Source of the DNA: a bacterium
GTDB taxonomy: Bacteria > Krumholzibacteriota > Krumholzibacteriia > G020349025
Reading direction: 5' to 3'
NCBI GenBank assembly: GCA_031362565.1
Contig: JANLSU010000130.1
Span: 1-60,963 of the forward strand
DNA: 60,963 nucleotides
Shown piece after piece: positions 26,353-52,423 of the stretch. Position numbers and translations under genes: made by a program. Position 1 is the stretch's first letter; every line of letters starts with the position of its first letter. Under the pieces are notes generated by a model. The model searched no databases and was not told the origin of the DNA. It worked only from the letters and a program-made list of their open reading frames with translations.

Positions 26353-26502
26353 CCGACGCCGGCGCCCGAGCCGGAAATTGCACTGTCGACCGCCAAGAAA
26401 GCGCCGCACGTCACTTGTCACACACGACTAGCGGTCGTCGGCGCGAGCAGACTGGGCGCGGTCGTGCGGGGCGGTTGGCGCGCGGCAGGTCTTTTTCCGG
26501 AT

Positions 26503-26525
26503 TTTTTTGCTGCGGAGGCAAAAAA
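26503..26525. promoter_or_regulatory. Inverted repeat TTTTTTGC-N7-GCAAAAAA in the AT-rich region upstream of the HU gene
   Basis: Read directly; function unknown. Confidence 0.35.
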
Positions 26526-26651
26526 GAGCTTGTTTTATCGGCTCGAATGCCGTACAAAACATGCCGCTACAGTGACCGGGTGCCCTCCGCTGCCCCGGCA
26601 TTTACGGTAAAAACGGAAAAGTTTTCTCTCGAATGGAGAACGATTTTGGTA

Positions 26652-27026
26652 ATGAAGAAGAAAGCTGCGAAGAAGCCGGCGGCCAAGAAGGGCCCCGTCG
26701 CCTACAAGTTCGGCAAGGCTGGCAAAGTGCGCAGCAAGAGCGAGATCTTCTCGAACATCGCGGACAACACGGGTCTGACCCGCAAGCAAGTGTCGGGCGT
26801 GTTCGAGTGCCTCGCCGCGATGATGGGCCAGGACCTCGCCCGGTCCGGACCAGAACTCTTCGCGCTGCCGGGTTTGGCCAAGTTCACCGTGGTGCACAAG
26901 CCCGCGACCAAGGCGCGCAAGGGCATCAACCCGTTCACGGGTCAAGAAGCCATGTTCAAGGCCAAGCCGGCCCGCAAGGTCGTCAAGGTGCGCCCCTTGA
27001 AGGGCGTCAAGGACATGGTGGCCTGA
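26652..27026 (+). CDS. HU-family DNA-binding protein with Lys/Ala-rich N-terminal tail
   Basis: KSEI...TGLTRKQV, LPGLAKF, KPATKARKGINPFTG..FKAKPARKVVKVRP. Confidence 0.9.
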   Translation: MKKKAAKKPAAKKGPVAYKFGKAGKVRSKSEIFSNIADNTGLTRKQVSGVFECLAAMMGQDLARSGPELFALPGLAKFTVVHKPATKARKGINPFTGQEAMFKAKPARKVVKVRPLKGVKDMVA

Positions 27027-36133: not shown

Positions 36134-38068
36134 ATGATGCCCTCCGAAGCGTCGTCGACGGAGCCCGAGGCCGCGGAACTCCGCGCGCGGCTCCGCAGGC
36201 TCGAAGCCGAACTCGTGGCGGCGCGCGAGCGCGAGACGAAACTCCAGGAATCACAAGCGCGCTATCGCATCCTGGCCGAAGACTCGCTGGCCGGCGTGTA
36301 CGTGTTGCAGGACCACAAATTCGCCTATGTCAACAAGCCGGCGGCGGCGCTCTTTGGTGCGGAACCGCAAGATCTCATCGGCCAGGACTTCACGCCTTTC
36401 ATGCTGCCGGAGACCGCGCCGTTGGTCGAAGAAAATATCCGCCGCCGCTTGGCGGGTGAGATCTCGAGCGCCCGCTACACGTTCCGCATTCGCACCGTGC
36501 AGGGCGAGATTCGCGACATCGAAGTTCTGGGCACGATCGCGACATTCGACGGCCGTCCGGCGATCATCGGTACGGCTCTGGATCGCACCGGTGACGTCGC
36601 GGCGCGCAATGCGTTGCAAGAACAAACTCGCCTGCTCGAACTGATTCTGGAGTGCATGGGGGATGGCGTCGCCGTCGCCAACCCCAAAGGCGAGTTCGTT
36701 ATTTTCAATCCGGCCGGAATCCGCATCACCGGCGTCGGGCCCACCGATGCGCCACCCGCGGCGTGGGGGGACGCGTATGGCATCTTTCTACCGGATCGGA
36801 CGACACCTTTCGCAGCCGGTGATTTGCCGCTGGCACGCGCGCTCCGCGGCGAGTCCACCGACGGGGTCGACATGTATCTGCGCAACCGCTCTCGGCCCGA
36901 CGGCGCTTGGCTCCGTGTCACCGGGCGGCCGCTCGTCGATGACGATGGTCAGATGCACGGCGGCGTGGTCGTCTTTCACGACACGACCGACCTTCGGCAC
37001 ACGATCGAAAAGCTCGAGCGTGCCGAGGCCAAGTATCGCGCCTTGGTCGAACAGTTGCCGGTCATCACGTACACGGCATCCGCCGAACCCATGGGCACCA
37101 TTCTGTACGTGAGCCCGCAAATCGAAACGGTGCTTGGGGTCGCTCCCGCCGAGTGGGTCGCGAATCCGAATCTCTGGCTCGGACACCTGCACCCGGAAGA
37201 TAGCGATCGCGTCGTCGCGGAAGTCCGCCACGCCTGGGAATCGCACCAGCGGTTCGTGTCCGAATACCGCATGATCACCCGCGCCGGCGATGTCGTATGG
37301 TTTCACGACGAAGCGGTCGTGTTGCACGACCTGCAAGGCAACGCATCGCTGCTGCAAGGTGTCATGTTGGACGTGACGGAACGCGAAACGGAACGCCGTG
37401 GACGCAAGCGCTTGCAGGCGTTGTCCGCGGATCTCGTGGCGGTGCAGGAGGCGGAGCGGCGGCGTCTCGGCCTCGAGCTGCACGACGACATTGGCCAGGT
37501 TCTGACCGGGCTCAAGATGATGCTCAATGCGGCGCTGGCGAGCCCGGGTCCCGAGTTGCTCGCACGCGTCGGCGACGCGGAACGGCTGGTCGATGAGGCG
37601 ACGCAGCGAGTGCGTGAGCTGTCGCAGCGCCTGCGGCCGGCGGCGCTCGACGACCTGGGCCTGCTGCCGGCGCTCGTCTCGCATGTGCGAAGCTACGAGC
37701 GGCAGACGAAGATCCAGGTCGAGTTCGAACACCGCGGCATCGAGCGGCGGCGCTTTGCCCCCGACGTAGAGACGGCCGCGTATCGCATCGTTCAGGAGGC
37801 GCTTACGAATGTTGCCCGGCATGCGCAGGTGCGCGCCGTGCGGGTGCGAGCCTGGGCCGAGGCCGGGCACCTGGCGGTGCTCGTGGAGGATCAAGGGGTC
37901 GGCTTCGATGCGGCGCTTGCCGAGGTCGACGGTGCGACCCGTGGTTTGGGTGGGCTGCGGGAACGCGCCGCACTTCTCGGGGGGCAAGTCTTGATCGAGA
38001 CCGCCCCGGGCCTGGGGTGCCGGGTGCACGTGGAACTGCCACTCGTGGATTTCGTGGACTGGCGATAG
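36134..38068 (+). CDS. Cytoplasmic triple-PAS sensor histidine kinase (HisKA_3)
   Basis: Three PAS/PAC repeats, ERRRLGLELHDDIGQ, EALTNVARHA, DQGVGF; no TM seen. Confidence 0.92.
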   Translation: MMPSEASSTEPEAAELRARLRRLEAELVAARERETKLQESQARYRILAEDSLAGVYVLQDHKFAYVNKPAAALFGAEPQDLIGQDFTPFMLPETAPLVEENIRRRLAGEISSARYTFRIRTVQGEIRDIEVLGTIATFDGRPAIIGTALDRTGDVAARNALQEQTRLLELILECMGDGVAVANPKGEFVIFNPAGIRITGVGPTDAPPAAWGDAYGIFLPDRTTPFAAGDLPLARALRGESTDGVDMYLRNRSRPDGAWLRVTGRPLVDDDGQMHGGVVVFHDTTDLRHTIEKLERAEAKYRALVEQLPVITYTASAEPMGTILYVSPQIETVLGVAPAEWVANPNLWLGHLHPEDSDRVVAEVRHAWESHQRFVSEYRMITRAGDVVWFHDEAVVLHDLQGNASLLQGVMLDVTERETERRGRKRLQALSADLVAVQEAERRRLGLELHDDIGQVLTGLKMMLNAALASPGPELLARVGDAERLVDEATQRVRELSQRLRPAALDDLGLLPALVSHVRSYERQTKIQVEFEHRGIERRRFAPDVETAAYRIVQEALTNVARHAQVRAVRVRAWAEAGHLAVLVEDQGVGFDAALAEVDGATRGLGGLRERAALLGGQVLIETAPGLGCRVHVELPLVDFVDWR

Positions 38069-38132
38069 GATCCGAGGAGCGCGATGGCGGACGGGCCCCG
38101 AGCGCCCGCCCCAGCCTGGGAGGGTGCCCAAA

Positions 38133-38819
38133 ATGATGTCGACCGTTCCGACCCGACCGACCCGCATCTTGCTGGTCGATGACCACTCGGTGGTGCGCGC
38201 AGGGGTTCGTTCCATCCTGCAGGCACAGGCGGATTTTACTCTCGTCGGAGAGGCCGAGGACGGCCTCGACGCGGTTCGCAAAACGGTCGAGCTCAAGCCG
38301 GATGTGCTCGTGCTCGACCTCGTTTTGCGCGGTGTCCAGGGCTTGGAGGTCCTGCGGCAGGTGCGCGAGCAGGCACAGCGCACGCGCGTTGTGGTCTTGT
38401 CGATGCACCAGGATCTCGCCTACGTTGTCGAGGCGCAGCGGGGCGGTGCCCTGGCCTACGTGCTCAAGGCGGGGCCTGGGGACGAGATCGTCAAGGCGGT
38501 CCGCGCCGCGATGCAGGGATTGAGCTACGTGAGTCCGCCCCTGAATCAAGCCGACATCGATACGGTGGCGAGGCAGATGGAGGGCGGCAAGCTCGACCTG
38601 TACGAGACGCTCACGACGCGTGAGCGGGAAGTGTGTCAGTTGGCAGCTCAGGGGTACACGAACGACGAGATTGGCGGGCAGCTCGACATCAGCCGGCGCA
38701 CGGTGGAGTCCCACCGGTTCCGGATGATGCACAAGGTGGGACTCAAGAACCAAGCCGAACTCGTACAGTTCGCGATCGGCCGCGGCGTGATTCCACGCCT
38801 GCCCGGCACTCGGCAGTAG
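38133..38819 (+). CDS. NarL/FixJ-family response regulator
   Basis: VDDH, LVLD, YVLK, LTTREREV LuxR-type HTH. Confidence 0.93.
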   Translation: MMSTVPTRPTRILLVDDHSVVRAGVRSILQAQADFTLVGEAEDGLDAVRKTVELKPDVLVLDLVLRGVQGLEVLRQVREQAQRTRVVVLSMHQDLAYVVEAQRGGALAYVLKAGPGDEIVKAVRAAMQGLSYVSPPLNQADIDTVARQMEGGKLDLYETLTTREREVCQLAAQGYTNDEIGGQLDISRRTVESHRFRMMHKVGLKNQAELVQFAIGRGVIPRLPGTRQ

Positions 38820-38854
38820 GTGTTCGTGATGGCATTTTCAGAAGGAGGCACCGC

Positions 38855-39061
38855 GTGAGCGAGGAGCAGGAGATTCTCATCGTCGTTTCGAAGCTGAAGA
38901 ATTATATTCGCGATAAGTCTGGAATGAATTCTTCCGCCGGCGTGGCGCAAGTGTTGTCCGACCACTTGCGCGGCATGTGCGATCAGGCGATCGAGAACGC
39001 CAAGAAGGACGGCCGCAAGACGGTGATGGATCGCGACGTTCCGCCCCTCGGGCCCGGCTGA
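38855..39061 (+). CDS. Bacterial histone-fold protein (Bd0055/HBb-like singlet), 68 aa
   Basis: AGGAGG RBS then GTG; EILIVVSKLKNYIRDKSGMNSSAGVAQVLSDHLRGMCDQAIENAKKDGRKTVMDRD with the RKTVxxxD histone L2/alpha3 motif. Confidence 0.88.
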   Translation: MSEEQEILIVVSKLKNYIRDKSGMNSSAGVAQVLSDHLRGMCDQAIENAKKDGRKTVMDRDVPPLGPG

Positions 39062-39099
39062 GGGCAGCGGTCCGCAGGGCGATCTGTCTGGAAAAGATG

Positions 39100-39128
39100 G
39101 CCCGCCCCCCACGCAGGGGGGGGCGGGC
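39100..39128. terminator. GC-rich hairpin between convergent histone and msrB genes
   Basis: GCCCGCCCCCC...GGGGGGCGGGC; CATCTTTT follows on the minus strand. Confidence 0.7.
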
Positions 39129-39131
39129 TCT

Positions 39132-39668
39132 CTATTTGTGGTCGGGAATGAAGACGAGCGCCACCGAATTCATGCAGTACCGCAAATGAGTCGGCGCCGG
39201 GCCATCGTCGAAGACATGCCCGAGGTGTCCGTCGCAGCGAGCGCAGGTCACTTCATCGCGCTCCATCCCCAGCATCTTGTCCTTGCCGATCTTGACGTGC
39301 TGGGGATTCAACGGTTCCCAGAAGCTCGGCCAGCCGGTTCCGGAGTCGAACTTGGTCTTGGAGCTGTAGAGATCGTAGCCGCATGCCGAGCAGCGATAGG
39401 TTCCGGCCGCATGTTCATCCCAGTACTTGCCCGTGAAGGCCCGCTCGGTGCCTTTTTCGCGCATGACGTTGTACTGCTCGCCGGTCAGCAATTGCTGCCA
39501 TTCGGCGTTCGTCTTGACGATGCGATCGGGGGTGTTGGGATCGGCCGTGACGGCCGCGGGCGTAGCCATGGGCGCTGTCTTCGCGGCGGGCTTGTTGGCG
39601 GCGATTCCGGCCACCGCCGCCAGAACGAGCGCCGCGCAGACGAGGCCAACGCGGGACTTGGATTTCAT
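39132..39668 (-). CDS. msrB: Methionine-R-sulfoxide reductase with signal peptide
   Basis: GTERAF, KFDSGTGWPSF, HLGHVFDDGP, RYCMNS, two CxxC; hydrophobic leader. Confidence 0.93.
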   Translation of the reverse strand: MKSKSRVGLVCAALVLAAVAGIAANKPAAKTAPMATPAAVTADPNTPDRIVKTNAEWQQLLTGEQYNVMREKGTERAFTGKYWDEHAAGTYRCSACGYDLYSSKTKFDSGTGWPSFWEPLNPQHVKIGKDKMLGMERDEVTCARCDGHLGHVFDDGPAPTHLRYCMNSVALVFIPDHK

Positions 39669-39788
39669 GATCCGGACACTCCTGTTCGTCGAGTCAGCGG
39701 TCGAGGCGCCGGTGCGTCGCCGCAAGTTGGGGGGTGAGGCCCATCCTCTGATGCCCAAGCCCCTCTACAGGGAAGAACCGGCGCTCGG

Positions 39789-40014
39789 ATGAAAAAATGC
39801 CCGCCGGTGCCGCTTTTCGCTGCCGGCGCCGCCAGAGCGGTTCACGCCACTGTAATAGTTGGCGGACAAGAGATGTTCCCGATCAAGGACATCGGTGAGG
39901 GGCGGCAAACGATGGGCGTCTTTCAACGGCCCGAGCAACATCATCATCAAGGAAAAGTCCGGCAATGTCGCCGACATCGCCACGTACGATGTTGCTCTCA
40001 ACGGACTGTTTTGA
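39789..40014 (+). pseudogene. Degraded fasciclin (FAS1) domain gene with large internal deletion and frameshift
   Basis: MKK..TVIVGGQEMFPIKDI in one frame, then VRGGKRWASFNGPSNIIIKEKSGNVADIATYDVALNG-stop in another; these match recalled N- and C-terminal ends of bacterial fasciclins. Confidence 0.65.
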
Positions 40015-41634: not shown

Positions 41635-42611
41635 TCGAACGCCCCAATGTCGCTGCGCCCCATTCACCGGCCGGCACGCCGGCCGGTGCGCGTCCGGCGC
41701 CGTCGGGCGTGCATCCCGCCCCGCGGCCCAACATGCGCCGGTCGCGCCCAGTGCGACGCCAGCGCACGCCGTTTCTCATCGACGCCGTCTTGATTGCGGG
41801 TTGGTTCGCTCTGGCGCTGCTCGGCAGTAGCTACTACCGATTGGCTCCGGAAGCGCGCTTGCATCATGCGTGGCACGCGCTGCTCAAGCCGTCCGGCGTG
41901 GTCGGGCTCGCGTATGGGTACTTGGGCACGGCGTTCATTCTGCTCTTGCTCGGGTATTCGTTGCGGAAGCGGTGGCGGCGGCTCCGGCAACTCGGTGCGC
42001 TGCGCCGCTGGCTCGATGTCCACATCACGTTCGGCCTTCTGGGCCCGGGCTTCATCACGTTGCATGCGGGGTTTCGCATTCACGGCGCCATCGCGATTGG
42101 GTACTGGGCGATGATCGGCGTCATGGCGAGCGGCTTCGTCGGATACTACTTGTACCGGCAATTGCCGAAACTCATTGCCGGCCAAACCGATCAATCGGAA
42201 CTCCTGCGGGTTGAAACCGACGCGCTCGATCAAGAACTACGCGAGCATTTCGGGCTCGACGCCAAGGAGATCGAAGCGCTGCGGCGCGCCGCCGGCGTCG
42301 AACGCGCGGCGCAGCTTGGCGCCCTCGGGAGCCTGGGTTTCTTGATTGGCCAGGATCTGCGCTTTGCGCTCGGGATGTGGCGTTATGGCGGGCTCGGCCG
42401 GCGCCGCTATCCGCGCGCCGAGGCGGCGCGCCTGCGCGGGCTCGTACGGAGCCGCATTCTCGTCGAGCGGCGGCGAGCCTTCCTGCGCCAGTCCGAAGCC
42501 CTCTTCGGGTATTGGCACACGATCCACAAACCGTTCGCGATCGTGTTGTACGTGATGATGACGGTGCACATCGCGATCGCAGTGTGGCTCGGATACGCGT
42601 GGGTGTGGTAA
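41631..42611 (+). CDS. Integral membrane protein, ferric-reductase/cytochrome-b-like
   Basis: About 5 TM with His motifs WLDVH, TLH, WHTIHKP, VHI. Confidence 0.7.
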   Translation: MIERPNVAAPHSPAGTPAGARPAPSGVHPAPRPNMRRSRPVRRQRTPFLIDAVLIAGWFALALLGSSYYRLAPEARLHHAWHALLKPSGVVGLAYGYLGTAFILLLLGYSLRKRWRRLRQLGALRRWLDVHITFGLLGPGFITLHAGFRIHGAIAIGYWAMIGVMASGFVGYYLYRQLPKLIAGQTDQSELLRVETDALDQELREHFGLDAKEIEALRRAAGVERAAQLGALGSLGFLIGQDLRFALGMWRYGGLGRRRYPRAEAARLRGLVRSRILVERRRAFLRQSEALFGYWHTIHKPFAIVLYVMMTVHIAIAVWLGYAWVW

Positions 42612-42616
42612 CGGCC

Positions 42617-44368
42617 ATGGGTGGTGCGATGCGGGCGGGCGGTGTTTGGATGGGAATGGCGGCGGGACTAGCGACTCTTCTGCACCCGGCGACCGGGCGC
42701 GCACAGTTCTCGCCTGGACACCTGGCACACGCGCACGCGTCCATCGACGGGCCGACGCAATGTTTCCAATGCCACGAGCCGCGCAAGTCGACGACCGCCG
42801 GCCGTTGCCTCAACTGCCATCGGGAGGTCGGCGCGCGCCTCGCGGCCGGTTCCGGCTTTCATGGGCATCTGCCCGCGGACAAGCGCCGACAATGTGGCAC
42901 TTGTCATGCCGACCACGGTGGAACCAAGACAGTGCTCATCGTCTGGCCGGGTGGACGTCGCGAGGCGTTCGACCACGGTCTTACGGGCTTTGCGCTCACC
43001 GGGAAGCACATCTCGACGCAGTGCGATGCGTGCCACAAGCCGGATTTGATTCGCGCCGCGGACGTCGAAGAAGCGAAGAACCTGCAACTGGCGACCACCC
43101 ACCTCGGACTCTCGACCCGCTGTGTCGAGTGCCACAAGGATCCGCACGCCGGCCAGTTCGCGTCGCGCGTGACGCGCGACGACTGCGCCGCATGCCACGT
43201 CACCGCAGCGTGGAAAAGGGTGACGTTCGACCACGCCACCGCGCGGTTTCCGCTCGCCGGCAGCCACGCGCGCGTGGCCTGCGCCAAGTGCCACTACTCC
43301 GAGGCTGCAGCCGGGGCGCGGGTCGCCGCCGCGACACCCGGGGCGATGGTCCGTTACCGGCCGTTGGGCAAGGCCGCTTGTGCGGAGTGTCACCCCGACC
43401 CGCACGCCAATCGCTTCGGCAACGACTGCGCCCAGTGTCACTCGGCGGAGAGCTGGCATCGAGTGGTCGCCGGACGCTTCGATCACGAACGGACCCGCTA
43501 TCCACTCACCGGGCGCCACGCCACGGTCGCCTGTGAACGCTGCCATTGGCTCGACAACGCCGCCGGCGCGCGGGTGGTTGAGAATACGGCCGGCGCCAAA
43601 CGCCACTATCGGCCGATCGCCTTCGAGGCCTGTACGACCTGCCATGCGGATCCGCACCAGAAGCGCTATGGAATGGACTGCGCGCGTTGCCACGCCACGG
43701 TTGGCTGGAAAGACATCACGGCCGGCGGCATCGATCACGACAAGACACGCTTTCCGCTCCGCGGCCGCCACATCCCGGTCGCCTGTGAAAAGTGCCACAA
43801 GGGGCGCGACTTCAAGCAAGCATTGGCCTTCGACCGCTGTACGGTCTGTCACGCCGATGCGCACCGCGGCGAACTCGCGACCCGGGCCGACCGCGGTGCA
43901 TGCGAATCCTGCCACACAGTCGATGGCTTCACGCCGGCGCACTTCGATGCCGAAGCACACGCGAAAACTCAGTTCCCGCTCGCCGACGCGCACCGGGCGG
44001 TGGCGTGCGTCACGTGTCACGCTCCGAAGGACGCACTGGGGGCGAAAGCGGTGTTTCACTTCAAGTTTGCAGATGAGCACTGCGCGGCGTGCCACGCCGA
44101 TCCGCACGCTGGACAATTCGCCGCCAAAACCGGTGGCGCGACCGATTGCGCCCGCTGCCACACCGCATCCATGTGGCGCTTGTCCTATTTCGATCATGCG
44201 GCGACCCGGTTCCCGCTCGACGGCGCGCACTCGCGCGCTGCCTGCGCGGCGTGTCACCGTTCCCAATTGCTCGCGGGCCAGTCCGTAGTGCGGTACCGGC
44301 CCCTCGACACCGCTTGCCGCTCGTGTCACTCGGATCCGCCGCGCGCGAAGCGCGTCAAAGGGACGTGA
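42617..44368 (+). CDS. Multiheme cytochrome c, 20 CxxCH motifs
   Basis: Signal peptide then QFSPG; 20 CxxCH counted; repeating FDH..T.FPL.G.H unit. Confidence 0.93.
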   Translation: MGGAMRAGGVWMGMAAGLATLLHPATGRAQFSPGHLAHAHASIDGPTQCFQCHEPRKSTTAGRCLNCHREVGARLAAGSGFHGHLPADKRRQCGTCHADHGGTKTVLIVWPGGRREAFDHGLTGFALTGKHISTQCDACHKPDLIRAADVEEAKNLQLATTHLGLSTRCVECHKDPHAGQFASRVTRDDCAACHVTAAWKRVTFDHATARFPLAGSHARVACAKCHYSEAAAGARVAAATPGAMVRYRPLGKAACAECHPDPHANRFGNDCAQCHSAESWHRVVAGRFDHERTRYPLTGRHATVACERCHWLDNAAGARVVENTAGAKRHYRPIAFEACTTCHADPHQKRYGMDCARCHATVGWKDITAGGIDHDKTRFPLRGRHIPVACEKCHKGRDFKQALAFDRCTVCHADAHRGELATRADRGACESCHTVDGFTPAHFDAEAHAKTQFPLADAHRAVACVTCHAPKDALGAKAVFHFKFADEHCAACHADPHAGQFAAKTGGATDCARCHTASMWRLSYFDHAATRFPLDGAHSRAACAACHRSQLLAGQSVVRYRPLDTACRSCHSDPPRAKRVKGT

Positions 44369-44372
44369 GATC

Positions 44373-45761
44373 ATGCTGAATCGAGCCATCCAGCGCCGCG
44401 CCAAGCGATGCCCCACCGCCGTGTGCGTGCTGCTTGCGGCGCTGATCGTAGCCCGATCCGCGGCCGCCGCCGCGCCCGTCTGGGGTGCGCGCCCCGCGCC
44501 CGCACCGGGGCTCGGGCCCGTGGTGGTGTTGGCCATGAATGAGGCGCCGGCGCCAGTGTCGGCGCCGGCGCCAGGCAAGGCCCTGGCGGTCGAGAACCCG
44601 CACGGCAACATCAAAGCGGCCTGCGAAGAGTGTCACACCGCCGAGAGCTGGACCAAGATGCGCCGGCCGACGCGCTTCCAACACGCGTCAACGGGCTTTC
44701 CGCTCGACGGGCGCCACGCATCGGCGGAATGCCGCGCTTGTCACGGCTCGCTCGGGTTTTCCCGCGTCGCGACCAGTTGCGTCGACTGTCACCGTGATGT
44801 CCACGAGGGTCGCAAAGGCCTCCGGTGCCAGGAATGTCACACCGCGAGCCGGTGGGTGGATCGCTCGGACGCGGTGCGGCGGCACGCCAGCACCGGCTTC
44901 CCGCTGCGCGGCGCGCACGCCCTCGTGGAATGCGCCCGCTGCCACGGCGGCTCGGACGAAGGACACTTGACGCGCGCGTCCACGGCCTGCGCGTCGTGCC
45001 ACGCGAGCGACTATGCCGCGGCGCGCAACCCCGACCACAAGGCGCTCGGTTACTCGACCCAATGCCAAGACTGTCACGACGCGGCGCGCACCACGTGGAC
45101 CGGCTCCGGCTTCAATCATGCCGCGACCGGGTTTGCGCTGACGGGTGCTCACGGCTTGGTTGGGTGCGCGTCGTGCCACCCTAACAACCGGTTTGCCGGC
45201 ACGCCGACCGATTGTTACGCGTGCCACCGGACGAATTTCGAGGCCACCACCAATCCGAATCATGTTGCCGGCGGGTTCGCGACGGCGTGTGTCACGTGTC
45301 ACTCGACGAATGCCTGGCGTCCGGCGGCGTTCAATCATGCGGCGACGGGCTTTGCGCTTACGGGGGGACATGCTTCGGTTGCGTGCGCCTCCTGCCACCC
45401 GAACGGCCGGTTCACGGGCACGCCGACCGATTGCTACGCATGCCACCGCACGAACTACGAGGCGGCGCTGAATCCACCGCACGCCGCCAGCGGCTTTGGC
45501 ACGACCTGTACCACGTGCCATACAACCACCGCATGGCAGCCTTCGACCTGGGACCACGACGCGCAGTTCTTCCGCATCTATTCGGGCACCCATCGCGGCC
45601 GCTGGACGAGTTGTGCGACCTGCCATACGAGCCCGAGCAATTTCGCCGTGTTTACGTGCTTGCAGTGTCATTCGCAGTCGGCGACGGATCCTCATCACAG
45701 CAACGTGTCGGGGTATCGCTATGACAGCAACGCCTGTTACTCCTGTCACCGCCGGTCGTGA
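44373..45761 (+). CDS. Multiheme cytochrome c, 16 CxxCH motifs
   Basis: Signal peptide, Pro/Ala linker, 16 CxxCH counted. Confidence 0.93.
   Translation: MLNRAIQRRAKRCPTAVCVLLAALIVARSAAAAAPVWGARPAPAPGLGPVVVLAMNEAPAPVSAPAPGKALAVENPHGNIKAACEECHTAESWTKMRRPTRFQHASTGFPLDGRHASAECRACHGSLGFSRVATSCVDCHRDVHEGRKGLRCQECHTASRWVDRSDAVRRHASTGFPLRGAHALVECARCHGGSDEGHLTRASTACASCHASDYAAARNPDHKALGYSTQCQDCHDAARTTWTGSGFNHAATGFALTGAHGLVGCASCHPNNRFAGTPTDCYACHRTNFEATTNPNHVAGGFATACVTCHSTNAWRPAAFNHAATGFALTGGHASVACASCHPNGRFTGTPTDCYACHRTNYEAALNPPHAASGFGTTCTTCHTTTAWQPSTWDHDAQFFRIYSGTHRGRWTSCATCHTSPSNFAVFTCLQCHSQSATDPHHSNVSGYRYDSNACYSCHRRS
45111..45548 (+). repeat. Intragenic tandem duplication, two copies of 219 bp (73 aa, three hemes each)
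   Basis: TTCAATCATG starts at 45111 and 45330; FNHAATGFALTG..CASCHPN.RF.GTPTDCYACHRTN is repeated. Confidence 0.85.
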
Positions 45762-49905: not shown

Positions 49906-50823
49906 TCAGGTCTTGCCGGCGGGGTATGCGTTCCGCGTCGTCGCCGCGACGCGCCGCAGCGCCGGCGCGAGTGGCGAACGCTTCCGCCACACGAGCGCAA
50001 TCGTGCGGAACGGCGCCGGCTTGGCAAACGCCCGCACCCGTAGGTTGGCGCGCTGGGTTTCGATCGGGACCGCGAGTTGCGGCAGAAGAGTCACCCCGGC
50101 GCCACCGGCCACCATCTGCGCCAGGGTCGAAAGGCTGGTGGCGCGAAACGCCAGCTCGTGAGCTTTGGCATCGGCACAAAACGCCAGGGCCTGGTCGCGA
50201 AAACAATGCCCATCATCCAAGAGCAAGACGTCCAGATCCGCGAGTTCGGCCGGACGCGCCGGCGTCTTCCGTTTGCACACCCGGTTGCCGAGCGGCGCCG
50301 CGAGGACGAACATGTCACGCGCGACGACCTCGCGCTCGACGTCGCCGACGTTGGCTTCGAGGGCCAAGAGTGCCGCTTCGGATTCACCGGCCTCGAGGCT
50401 CCGCAGCAGCACATCGGTCTTGTCTTCGACCCAAACGATCGTCAGATGCGGGTGCGCGGCGCGCAGCGCCGGTGTGAGGGCCGGCAACAGATAGGGCGAA
50501 ATCGTCGGGATGACCCCGATCCGAAGCGTGCTCGCCAACGGATCCTCGGCGCGCTTGGCGGCATCGGCGAGGCCGTCGGTGTCGCGCAGGATCCGGCGGG
50601 CGCGTTCAATCAGCTCACGTCCCGCGGCTGTTGGGAGGACGCGCCGTTGATTACGCTCGAACAGACGGACGCCGAGTGCGGTCTCGAGCGCCGCAATCTG
50701 GGCGCTGAGCGATGGCTGCGAGACCCCGCAGCGCTCGGCCGCCTTGCGGAAGCTCAACAGGTCGGCGACCGCGACGGCGTACTGCATCTGGCGCAGCGAG
50801 AAAGGATGCGAGGAATGCTCCAT
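49906..50823 (-). CDS. oxyR: Hydrogen-peroxide-sensing LysR regulator
   Basis: LysR HTH; GHCFRDQALAFC with both redox cysteines; divergent from catalase. Confidence 0.9.
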   Translation of the reverse strand: MEHSSHPFSLRQMQYAVAVADLLSFRKAAERCGVSQPSLSAQIAALETALGVRLFERNQRRVLPTAAGRELIERARRILRDTDGLADAAKRAEDPLASTLRIGVIPTISPYLLPALTPALRAAHPHLTIVWVEDKTDVLLRSLEAGESEAALLALEANVGDVEREVVARDMFVLAAPLGNRVCKRKTPARPAELADLDVLLLDDGHCFRDQALAFCADAKAHELAFRATSLSTLAQMVAGGAGVTLLPQLAVPIETQRANLRVRAFAKPAPFRTIALVWRKRSPLAPALRRVAATTRNAYPAGKT

Positions 50824-50941: not shown

Positions 50942-52423
50942 ATGTCGAAGCGACCCAAACTAACCACTGAGGCTGGGAAGCCCGTCCTCGACAACCAGCA
51001 CTCGGAAACCGCCGGGCCCGCGGGGCCGGCGCTGCTGCAGGACCACCATCTGATCGAGAAGCTGGCAAGATTCAATCGCGAGCGGATTCCGGAGCGCATC
51101 GTGCACGCTGTCGGCAGCGGCGCGTACGGGTATCTCGAAGTGACGAACGCCCAAGTGTCGCAATGGACGAAGATGAAGGTGTTCTCGCCGGCCGGCAAGC
51201 GGACGCCGCTCTTCATTCGCTTCTCGACGGTCGCGGGCGGGCGAGGCGCCGCCGACACGGCGCGTGATCCGCGCGGCTTCGCGGTGAAGTTCTACACCGA
51301 GGACGGCAACTGGGACCTCGTCGGCAACAATACGCCGGTGTTCTTCTTGCGCGACGGCATCAAGTTCCCCGACTTCATCCACTCGCAGAAGCTCGATCCG
51401 TATACGAACCGCCAGGAACCCGACAACGTCTGGGATTTCTTTTCGCACTCACCGGAAGCAACCCACCAATTCGTGTGGTTGTTCGGTGATCGCGGCCTTC
51501 CGGCGTCGCTGCGGCAGATGGATGGCTTCGGCTCGCACACTTTCCAGTGGGTGAATGCCAAGGGCGAGCGCTTCTGGGTGAAGTTCCATTTCAAAACCGA
51601 TCAAGGCATCCACTGCCTGACGTCCGACGAGGCGGCGGCGCGCGCCGGCAAGGACCCATCGGCCACCCACAAGGATCTCTACGACGCCATCGAACGCGGC
51701 GAATATCCGTCGTGGACGCTCAAAGTGCAGGTCATGCCCGAGGCGGCGGCCGCCACGTACCGTTTCAACCCCTTCGATCTCACCAAGGTGTGGCCGTACG
51801 CCGACTACCCGCTGATTCCGGTTGGCAAGATGGTGCTCGACCGCTTGCCCGAGAACTACTTTGCGGAAGTCGAGCAAGCGGCATTCGATCCGGCCAACAT
51901 GGTGCCGGGCATCGGCCCGTCACCGGATCGCATGTTGCAGGCACGGCTCTTCGCCTACGGCGACGCGCATCGCTACCGGCTCGGCATCAATCACACCCGG
52001 CTGCCGGTGAATGCGCCCAAGGAGGTTGCAGGTGGCGCCAGCAACTACGGCCGTGATGGCGCGATGCGTTTCGACGCCAACGGCGGCCGCACCAAGAATT
52101 ACGAACCCAATTCCTTCGACGGCCCAATGCAAACCGGTGAGCGGCACGAGACCGGCTTCAACGTCAGCGGCGCGACCGGACCGGCCGTGCCGTTCAGCCA
52201 TGTCGAGGACAACGACTTCGTGCAGGCAGGCGCGCTCTACCGGGTGATGAAGGCCGACGAGCGCGAGCGGCTCGTTGCGAACATCGCCGGCAGTATGGCG
52301 CAAGTGGGGCGCGACGATGTCGTTGAACGATCGATCGGCCACTTCCGGGCAGCGGACGCGGAGTTCGGCAAGAAGCTCGCGGACACGGTCGCGGTCCTGC
52401 GTCGTGCAAGGAGTTCGAAATGA
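50942..52423 (+). CDS. katA: Monofunctional heme catalase (small subunit)
   Basis: [40 protein letters not shown]. Confidence 0.96.

Follow-up and report, generated by a model that had tools for sequence, protein, structure and literature searches.

The window analyzed here is a stretch of 60,963 nucleotides from a bacterium of the phylum Krumholzibacteriota (assembly GCA_031362565.1, contig JANLSU010000130.1, positions 1 to 60,963 of the forward strand). Between the genes of a two-component system and a convergent gene for a methionine sulfoxide reductase, it contains a short frame that very probably encodes a bacterial histone. The features of this locus are listed below with the basis of each assignment in brackets.

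36134-38068, + strand: PAS/HisKA_3 sensor kinase (Pfam)
38124-38819, + strand: NarL/LuxR-type response regulator (Pfam)
38843..38848, + strand: Shine-Dalgarno AGGAGG with a 6-nt spacer to the GTG (sequence)
38855..39061, + strand: gene for a probable HBb/Bd0055-type alpha3-truncated singlet histone (translation, phmmer, AF2 model, Foldseek)
39099..39129, both strands: GC-rich hairpin, likely a bidirectional intrinsic terminator (terminator scan)
39132..39758, - strand: MsrB, methionine sulfoxide reductase B (SelR domain), convergent (PF01641, E 7.6e-51)

The histone frame opens with a GTG at 38855, 6 nt downstream of the AGGAGG, and runs for 68 codons to a TGA stop at 39059-39061. A preliminary description of the locus, made from the sequence alone, had reported this ribosome-binding site and a 68-aa product; we found both where it had placed them, together with every peptide stretch that it quoted. 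It was also right that the frame is hidden in the track of open reading frames, since the mechanical list gives a 142-aa GTG ORF (38633..39061) instead, the first 74 codons of which overlap the 231-aa response-regulator gene (38124..38819) in a different frame. We take 38855 to be the true start because homologues in the family alignment begin at the equivalent residue, for example with M-S-D-E-K-E, and because inspection of the sequence between the regulator stop (38817-38819) and 38855 revealed no in-frame start codon. The HBb-type genes of nine other Krumholzibacteriota genomes have a GGAG or GGAGG 5-9 nt 5' of their start. In the 5.4-Mb, 133-contig genome to which the window belongs, the histone gene is present as a single copy, and its GC3 is 0.78, compared to 0.67-0.87 in 40 neighboring genes. 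A local dip in GC (0.555 at 38800-38999) had raised the question of recent horizontal transfer, which we rejected because GC3 is as in the neighbors; the dip is due to a GC of 0.38 at codon position 2, i.e., to amino-acid composition. We likewise rejected a mis-binned contig, since the SmpB that the contig encodes shares 65-71% identity with that of five genomes of the same family and 50-60% with that of 14 genomes of other families.

When the 68-aa product was compared by phmmer with all PDB chains (177,635 sequences), the best match was to HBb/Bd0055 (8cmp/9ezz/9f0e and 8fvx/8fw7), with an E value of 1.6e-12 and 50.5 bits. The alignment is ungapped over query residues 5-62 (58 residues), of which 28 are identical as counted on the HMMER midline (about 47%). 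Weaker matches were obtained for HLp of Leptospira perolatii (25.1 bits), HTkC of Thermococcus (17.4 bits), and HMfA/B (around 13 bits). The HBb score is thus twice that of HLp and 3-4 times that of HTkC or HMf, which assigns the protein to the HBb type by sequence. The Bd0055 sequence given in the preliminary description agrees with PDB chains 8cmp_A/8fvx_A, and the colinear match that it drew, including the RKTV..RD motif, is far beyond chance at this length and E value. In a large protein collection, we found 559 clusters of homologous proteins (37-119 residues); the top one is 94% identical to the query, and E values go down to 5e-34. A family alignment of 69 sequences from several phyla (the query and 68 of 120 listed homologues) has 12 invariant columns, namely S12, K13, K15, Y17, N25, A45, A49, R54, K55, T56, R60, and D61.

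Curated models recognize the protein poorly. Its score with Pfam PF00808 (CBFD_NFYB_HMF), a domain name that the solved HBb chains carry in the PDB, is 16.8 bits for a gathering cut-off of 21.4 (E 0.0081, residues 30-62 only), and its score with NCBIfam NF043032 (archaea_histone) is 22 bits for a cut-off of 50 (E 1.7e-4). Scores below these two cut-offs account for the name "hypothetical protein" given by the NCBI source to homologue P0041; many homologues are named "histone H3/H4" in JGI. Since both models miss the gene, annotation pipelines will leave it as a hypothetical protein, and ORF tracks will place its start wrongly.

We modeled the protein with AlphaFold2 on the family alignment, which yielded a mean pLDDT of 87.5. 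The model has a helix 1 at residues 9-22, a helix 2 at residues 28-51, and a three-residue helical turn at residues 59-61 in place of helix 3. In a Foldseek search, ranks 1-5 were all HBb (TMq 0.77-0.80, TMt 0.83-0.88, rmsd 1.4-1.6 Å, 46-47% identity), followed by HLp and HTkC (TMq 0.71-0.74) and then by archaeal and eukaryotic histones. The preliminary description had expected a three-helix histone fold. This is borne out in that the model superposes on HBb histones, but helix 3 is a single turn and the fold is not a full three-helix one. A helix 3 reduced to 3-4 residues is described as the defining trait of alpha3-truncated histones (Schwab et al. 2024), and the predicted structure of the window protein has this truncated helix 3 together with the helix 2 of bacterial dimer histones, which is shorter than in nucleosomal histones. 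HBb of Bdellovibrio bacteriovorus (PDB 8cmp, 8fvx, 8fw7, 9ezz, 9f0e), a protein of similar length that also consists of the histone fold only, has the same one-turn helix 3 and short helix 2. With the archaeal histones HMfA/HMfB (PDB 1a7w, 1b67, 5t5k), the window protein has in common the histone fold as well as an RKT loop and an RD clamp. Their matches are weak (sequence E about 1 with phmmer, Foldseek E 0.12), and they differ by a helix 3 of three turns, a helix 2 of greater length, the tetramer His49, the sprocket Arg, and the formation of hypernucleosomes, all absent in the window protein.

Since the alignment with HBb is ungapped, residues could be compared by count, HBb residue n being window residue n+3. 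Eight of the ten HBb residues ranked by their DNA contacts in the published work (Hu et al. 2024) are kept: N22, R57, S9, T53, S24, K10, K12, and K52 correspond to N25, R60, S12, T56, S27, K13, K15, and K55. Of the other two, K16 is conservatively replaced by R19, and T8 is changed to V11. The RD clamp of HBb (R51-D58) and its helper D49 are retained as R54-D61 and D52, and the RKTxxxxD motif of loop 2/helix 3 is present as R54 K55 T56 V57 M58 D59 R60 D61, sharing RKTVM.RD with HBb. At helix 1, where both proteins have an S-K motif, S12, K13, and K15 are invariant in the family, and R19 stands in for HBb K16. The dimer-interface residues L31, I35, L38, V11, and I59 of HBb are L34, L38, M41, L14, and V62 in the window protein and thus hydrophobic throughout. 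In HBb, A48 occupies the position of the archaeal tetramer histidine (Hocher et al. 2023); by count, the window protein has K51 at this HBb A48/archaeal His49 position, so that neither protein has the tetramerization His. The residues R48/N52, which make the dimer-dimer contact in the published logo of face-to-face (FtF) histones (Schwab et al. 2024), are N48/D52 in the window protein when counted back from the RKT motif.

Apart from the changes at V11 and K51, the window protein differs from HBb, which belongs to Bdellovibrionota, by an acidic N-terminus, a Pro/Gly-rich C-terminal extension of six residues (P-P-L-G-P-G), and a net charge of 0. The neutral charge (pI 6.55, compared to a median of +1 and pI 7.87 in 86 relatives) stems from the acidic residues of the N-terminal S-E-E-Q-E. 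The fold core of 56 residues is itself basic, with a net charge of +3 and a pI of 9.36, which is near the median values of the family (+4 and 9.52).

Because the protein has the sequence and predicted fold of bacterial dimers and lacks the FtF residues, it fits the "bacterial dimer" category, which is defined by sequence clustering (Schwab et al. 2024). Sequence match, predicted fold, and diagnostic residues together support the Bd0055-like identity originally proposed for it, and we conclude with good confidence that the gene encodes an HBb/Bd0055-type alpha3-truncated "bacterial dimer" histone, which by homology would form a homodimer, bind DNA, and bend it. By analogy with HBb, two chains would pair antiparallel along helix 2. 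With no sequence specificity, this homodimer would contact the phosphate backbone of DNA across minor grooves at two places: its paired L1-L2 loops, formed by N25-S27 and K55-T56 and fixed by the R54-D61 clamp, and the residues S12, K13, K15, and R19 at the beginning of helix 1. Given that the tetramerization residues are absent, dimers are expected to act singly, bending or compacting DNA instead of wrapping it. In the cell, the histone may serve as a nucleoid-associated protein alongside five proteins of the HU/IHF family, whose genes score above the Pfam cut-off (PF00216) in this genome; with five such genes present, the histone need not be the main nucleoid protein. Bdellovibrio, too, is described as having HU/IHF genes next to its histone (Schwab et al. 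2024). HU/IHF proteins (PF00216), which are small, abundant, dimeric, and non-specific DNA benders, would be likely functional analogues of the window protein despite their unrelated fold, and HBb has itself been compared to an HU/IHF-like bender (Hu et al. 2024).

Bending is the likelier but unsettled part of this mechanism because two binding modes have been published for HBb. In one, single dimers bend DNA (Hu et al. 2024); in the other, dimers line up end-on as a filament on straight DNA (Hocher et al. 2023). A protein of the same family could accordingly act as a "nucleohistone filament", in which end-on dimers coat straight DNA through the single L1-L2 face at about one dimer per 2.5 bp. 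This arrangement was seen in the Bd0055-DNA crystal (Hocher et al. 2023), and the L1-L2 residues on which it relies are identical in the window protein (N25, S27, K55, T56, and R60). However, a second DNA interface (T8, S9, and K10) and bending observed in solution and in molecular dynamics have been reported for HBb (Hu et al. 2024), and two of its residues, S12 and K13 in the window protein, do not vary in the 69-sequence alignment, for which reason we favor bending. Moreover, the N-terminus proposed to stabilize the fiber (Hocher et al. 2023) differs in the window protein, being the acidic S-E-E-Q-E. We therefore regard the filament as a rather unlikely mode for this protein.

A feature that sets the window gene apart from that of HBb is its position immediately behind a two-component system. 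The response-regulator gene ends 35 nt 5' of the histone start on the same strand, and the terminator scan found no + strand terminator-like site between the two. On the other side, a hairpin of 12 pairs (11 of them G-C), with T-rich tails on both strands, separates the histone gene from the convergent msrB. It corresponds to terminator-like sites at 39099..39129 on the + strand and 39128..39100 on the - strand; the total for the region is 7, compared to 1.2 expected in shuffles. A scan of 38000-39800 detected no sigma-70-like promoter, using a consensus that may not be that of Krumholzibacteriota. The 35-nt gap, the lack of a + strand terminator-like site within it, and the blank promoter scan make co-transcription of the histone gene with the kinase/regulator system possible.

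We compared this arrangement with the loci of six relatives (1.7-3.2 kb each), in which tblastn matched the histone alone and returned no match for the kinase, the regulator, or MsrB. Four relatives from the same family as the window (L003, L005, L006, and L007) have a common -10-like element, TGCTATGGT / TGCTATCGT, about 90 nt 5' of the histone start, with GGTGAC 18-19 nt upstream of it. Judged by its letters, this element with its GGTGAC looks like an extended -10 promoter followed by a long leader. The leader is absent from the window locus, where the response-regulator gene fills that space.

Rather than constitutive, abundant chromatin, the histone might thus be a conditionally expressed accessory DNA-binding protein, the third gene of a PAS-kinase/NarL-regulator operon, which would alter the nucleoid or gene expression solely when the two-component system senses its signal. 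Consistent with such an operon are the shared strand and short uninterrupted gap, the strong terminator 3' of the histone gene, the outcome of the promoter scan, and the missing -10-like leader of the four relatives. However, the adjacency of kinase and regulator is not kept in the six relatives' loci, a promoter with a consensus other than the one scanned for could sit inside the end of the regulator gene, and the strong ribosome-binding site argues for efficient translation. We consider this conditional role improbable, and a nucleoid-associated DNA bender of the HBb type remains our preferred reading.

We wondered how widespread such histones are. Among 185,579 species genomes, at least 561 loci encode a relative. 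The best 80 of these at least 561 loci are mostly titled Bdellovibrionota, with proteins 57-75% identical to the window histone, and the other titles among these 80 are Planctomycetota, Myxococcota, Nitrospirota, Eisenbacteria, Gammaproteobacteria, Candidatus Krumholzibacteriia, and Candidatus Latescibacterota. Within Krumholzibacteriota, we searched 208 species genomes, counting a match at E <= 1e-15 as an HBb-type gene and a match at E <= 1e-3 as any alpha3 histone. HBb-type genes are present in 10 of the 208 genomes: in six of the seven of the window's own GTDB family (f1, its own genome counted), where the genome lacking one is 71% complete, in 3/13 of family f8, in 1/23 of family f4, and in none of the 165 genomes of the remaining six families. 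None of these ten genomes has a second histone match at E <= 1e-3. At that threshold, 110 of the 208 genomes have an alpha3 histone match, mostly of a Leptospira-like type. The view that histones are uncommon in bacteria therefore holds overall but not in Krumholzibacteriota, where these 110 genomes have an alpha3 singlet histone.

All 20 of the weaker loci that we inspected contain a histone-fold ORF of 55-60 residues with the FtF signature R-x3-N-x-[RK]-K-T. Three family-specific types can be told apart among them, with HTkC or HLp, and not HBb, as their nearest solved relatives. Family f2 (L009, L108, L110, and L113-L115; e.g., L108:57-224(+)) has alpha3 singlet histones of 55-58 residues with the FtF signature, and family f3 (L010, L102-L105, L107, and L116; e.g., L103:1501-1674(+)) has a second type of the same length and signature. 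The f2 and f3 types have HTkC (E 4.4e-6) and HLp (E 4.7e-8) as their best solved relatives, and 76/91 genomes of f2 and 7/43 of f3 have a match at E <= 1e-3. In family f6 (L100:1426-1683(+), L011, L101, L106, L109, L111, and L112), an HLp-like fold (E 1e-10) is preceded by a Lys/Ala/Thr-rich N-terminal tail of 27-40 residues. This tailed form is conserved in seven genomes of the one family, with start codons uncertain in three of the loci; most bacterial singlet histones are described as having no tails (Hocher et al. 2023).

The prevalence of the FtF type in the phylum bears on whether the window protein could instead be a tetrameric, DNA-wrapping face-to-face histone, as are HLp of Leptospira and the archaeal HTkC. 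These two proteins (Leptospira perolatii and Thermococcus kodakarensis; PDB 9qt0-2 and 9f2c) share the alpha3-truncated singlet fold and an RxT....D motif with the window protein and rank next after HBb both by sequence and by fold, and most other histones of Krumholzibacteriota are of this type. However, FtF histones tetramerize via R48/N52 and wrap about 60 bp of DNA (Hu et al. 2025; Schwab et al. 2024), while the window protein has N48/D52 at these positions, its score with HLp is half of that with HBb (25.1 versus 50.5 bits), and the signature it lacks is carried by all 20 of the weaker-matching histones of the phylum that were inspected. A tetrameric wrapper is thus very unlikely. Scarcely credible is a chance ORF, or a histone-fold scaffold protein that does not bind DNA, even though the Pfam and NCBIfam scores fall under the curated cut-offs and some eukaryotic histone folds are reported to function solely in protein complexes (Hocher et al. 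2023): there are 559 clusters of homologues with E values down to 5e-34, the 12 invariant columns match the positions that contact DNA or form the clamp in HBb, and the gene is single, stand-alone, and domain-only in a genome with no partner histone-fold gene.

The window histone shares 52-69% identity with the other nine phylum members of the HBb type (L003-L008 and L097-L099) and 72-80% with some MAG proteins titled Bdellovibrionota and Lysobacteraceae, and its D-R-D-V-P-P ending resembles that of proteins titled Polyangia. In a rapid tree of poor resolution, built from 115 rows and 67 columns (duplicates L034, L072, L081, and L091 and homologues from P0031 onward omitted), it pairs with a metagenome protein, apart from the nine other sequences of the phylum. 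We make no claim of a separate origin for the window copy, since a single clade of all ten phylum sequences was not rejected by the AU test (p 0.458, lnL difference 3.14).

We tentatively propose that Krumholzibacteriota may be a histone-using phylum, in which about half of the genomes have an alpha3 histone, usually a single one, of a family-specific type that would have been swapped during diversification. In this scenario the window copy, having lost its leader and standing last behind a kinase and a regulator, would be a candidate for signal-controlled chromatin remodeling.

Bacterial histones have been characterized from 2023 onward, and to our knowledge bench studies cover only two of them, HBb and the Leptospira histones, with solved structures for HLp. 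Our literature search found no paper on Krumholzibacter and histone, in agreement with the earlier view that histones are uncharacterized in this lineage, and among the matches listed for Latescibacter and histone none is, by its title, on bacterial histones. In the supplement of Hocher et al. 2023, the displayed occurrences of Krumholzibacter/Latescibacter sit in the list of surveyed assemblies and not in the histone table. Three supplementary files of Schwab et al. 2024 have 0 occurrences of four taxon names, a blank of little weight because these files probably do not give taxon names in that form ("Nitrospir" is absent too). The main holders of bacterial dimers named in that work are Bdellovibrionota, Elusimicrobiota, Spirochaetota, Planctomycetota, Myxococcota_A, and Chlamydiota (Schwab et al. 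2024). As far as we searched, the family is thus already catalogued and widespread, and the Krumholzibacteriota lineage is new in print. With this gene, the HBb type gains a well-supported member from a candidate phylum for which we found no histone reports. The phylum-wide pattern of family-specific histone types may be of greater use than the single gene, since half of the genomes of the phylum, each with one alpha3 histone, form a natural comparison set of what would be dimeric benders versus tetrameric wrappers.

Two further observations concern the surroundings of the histone gene. One of the five HU/IHF-family genes (PF00216, E 2.4e-15) lies in the window at 26415-27026 (+), with a probable start near 26652, and M-K-K-K-A-A-K-K-P-A-A-K-K, a short tail rich in Lys and Ala, opens its likely product. 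Genes for oxidative stress and cytochromes also lie no more than 12 kb from the histone gene, namely MsrB, a LysR-type regulator beside a catalase, and two genes for multihaem c-type cytochromes (39132-39758 (-), 49906-50823 (-), 50942-52423 (+), and 42377-45761 (+)).
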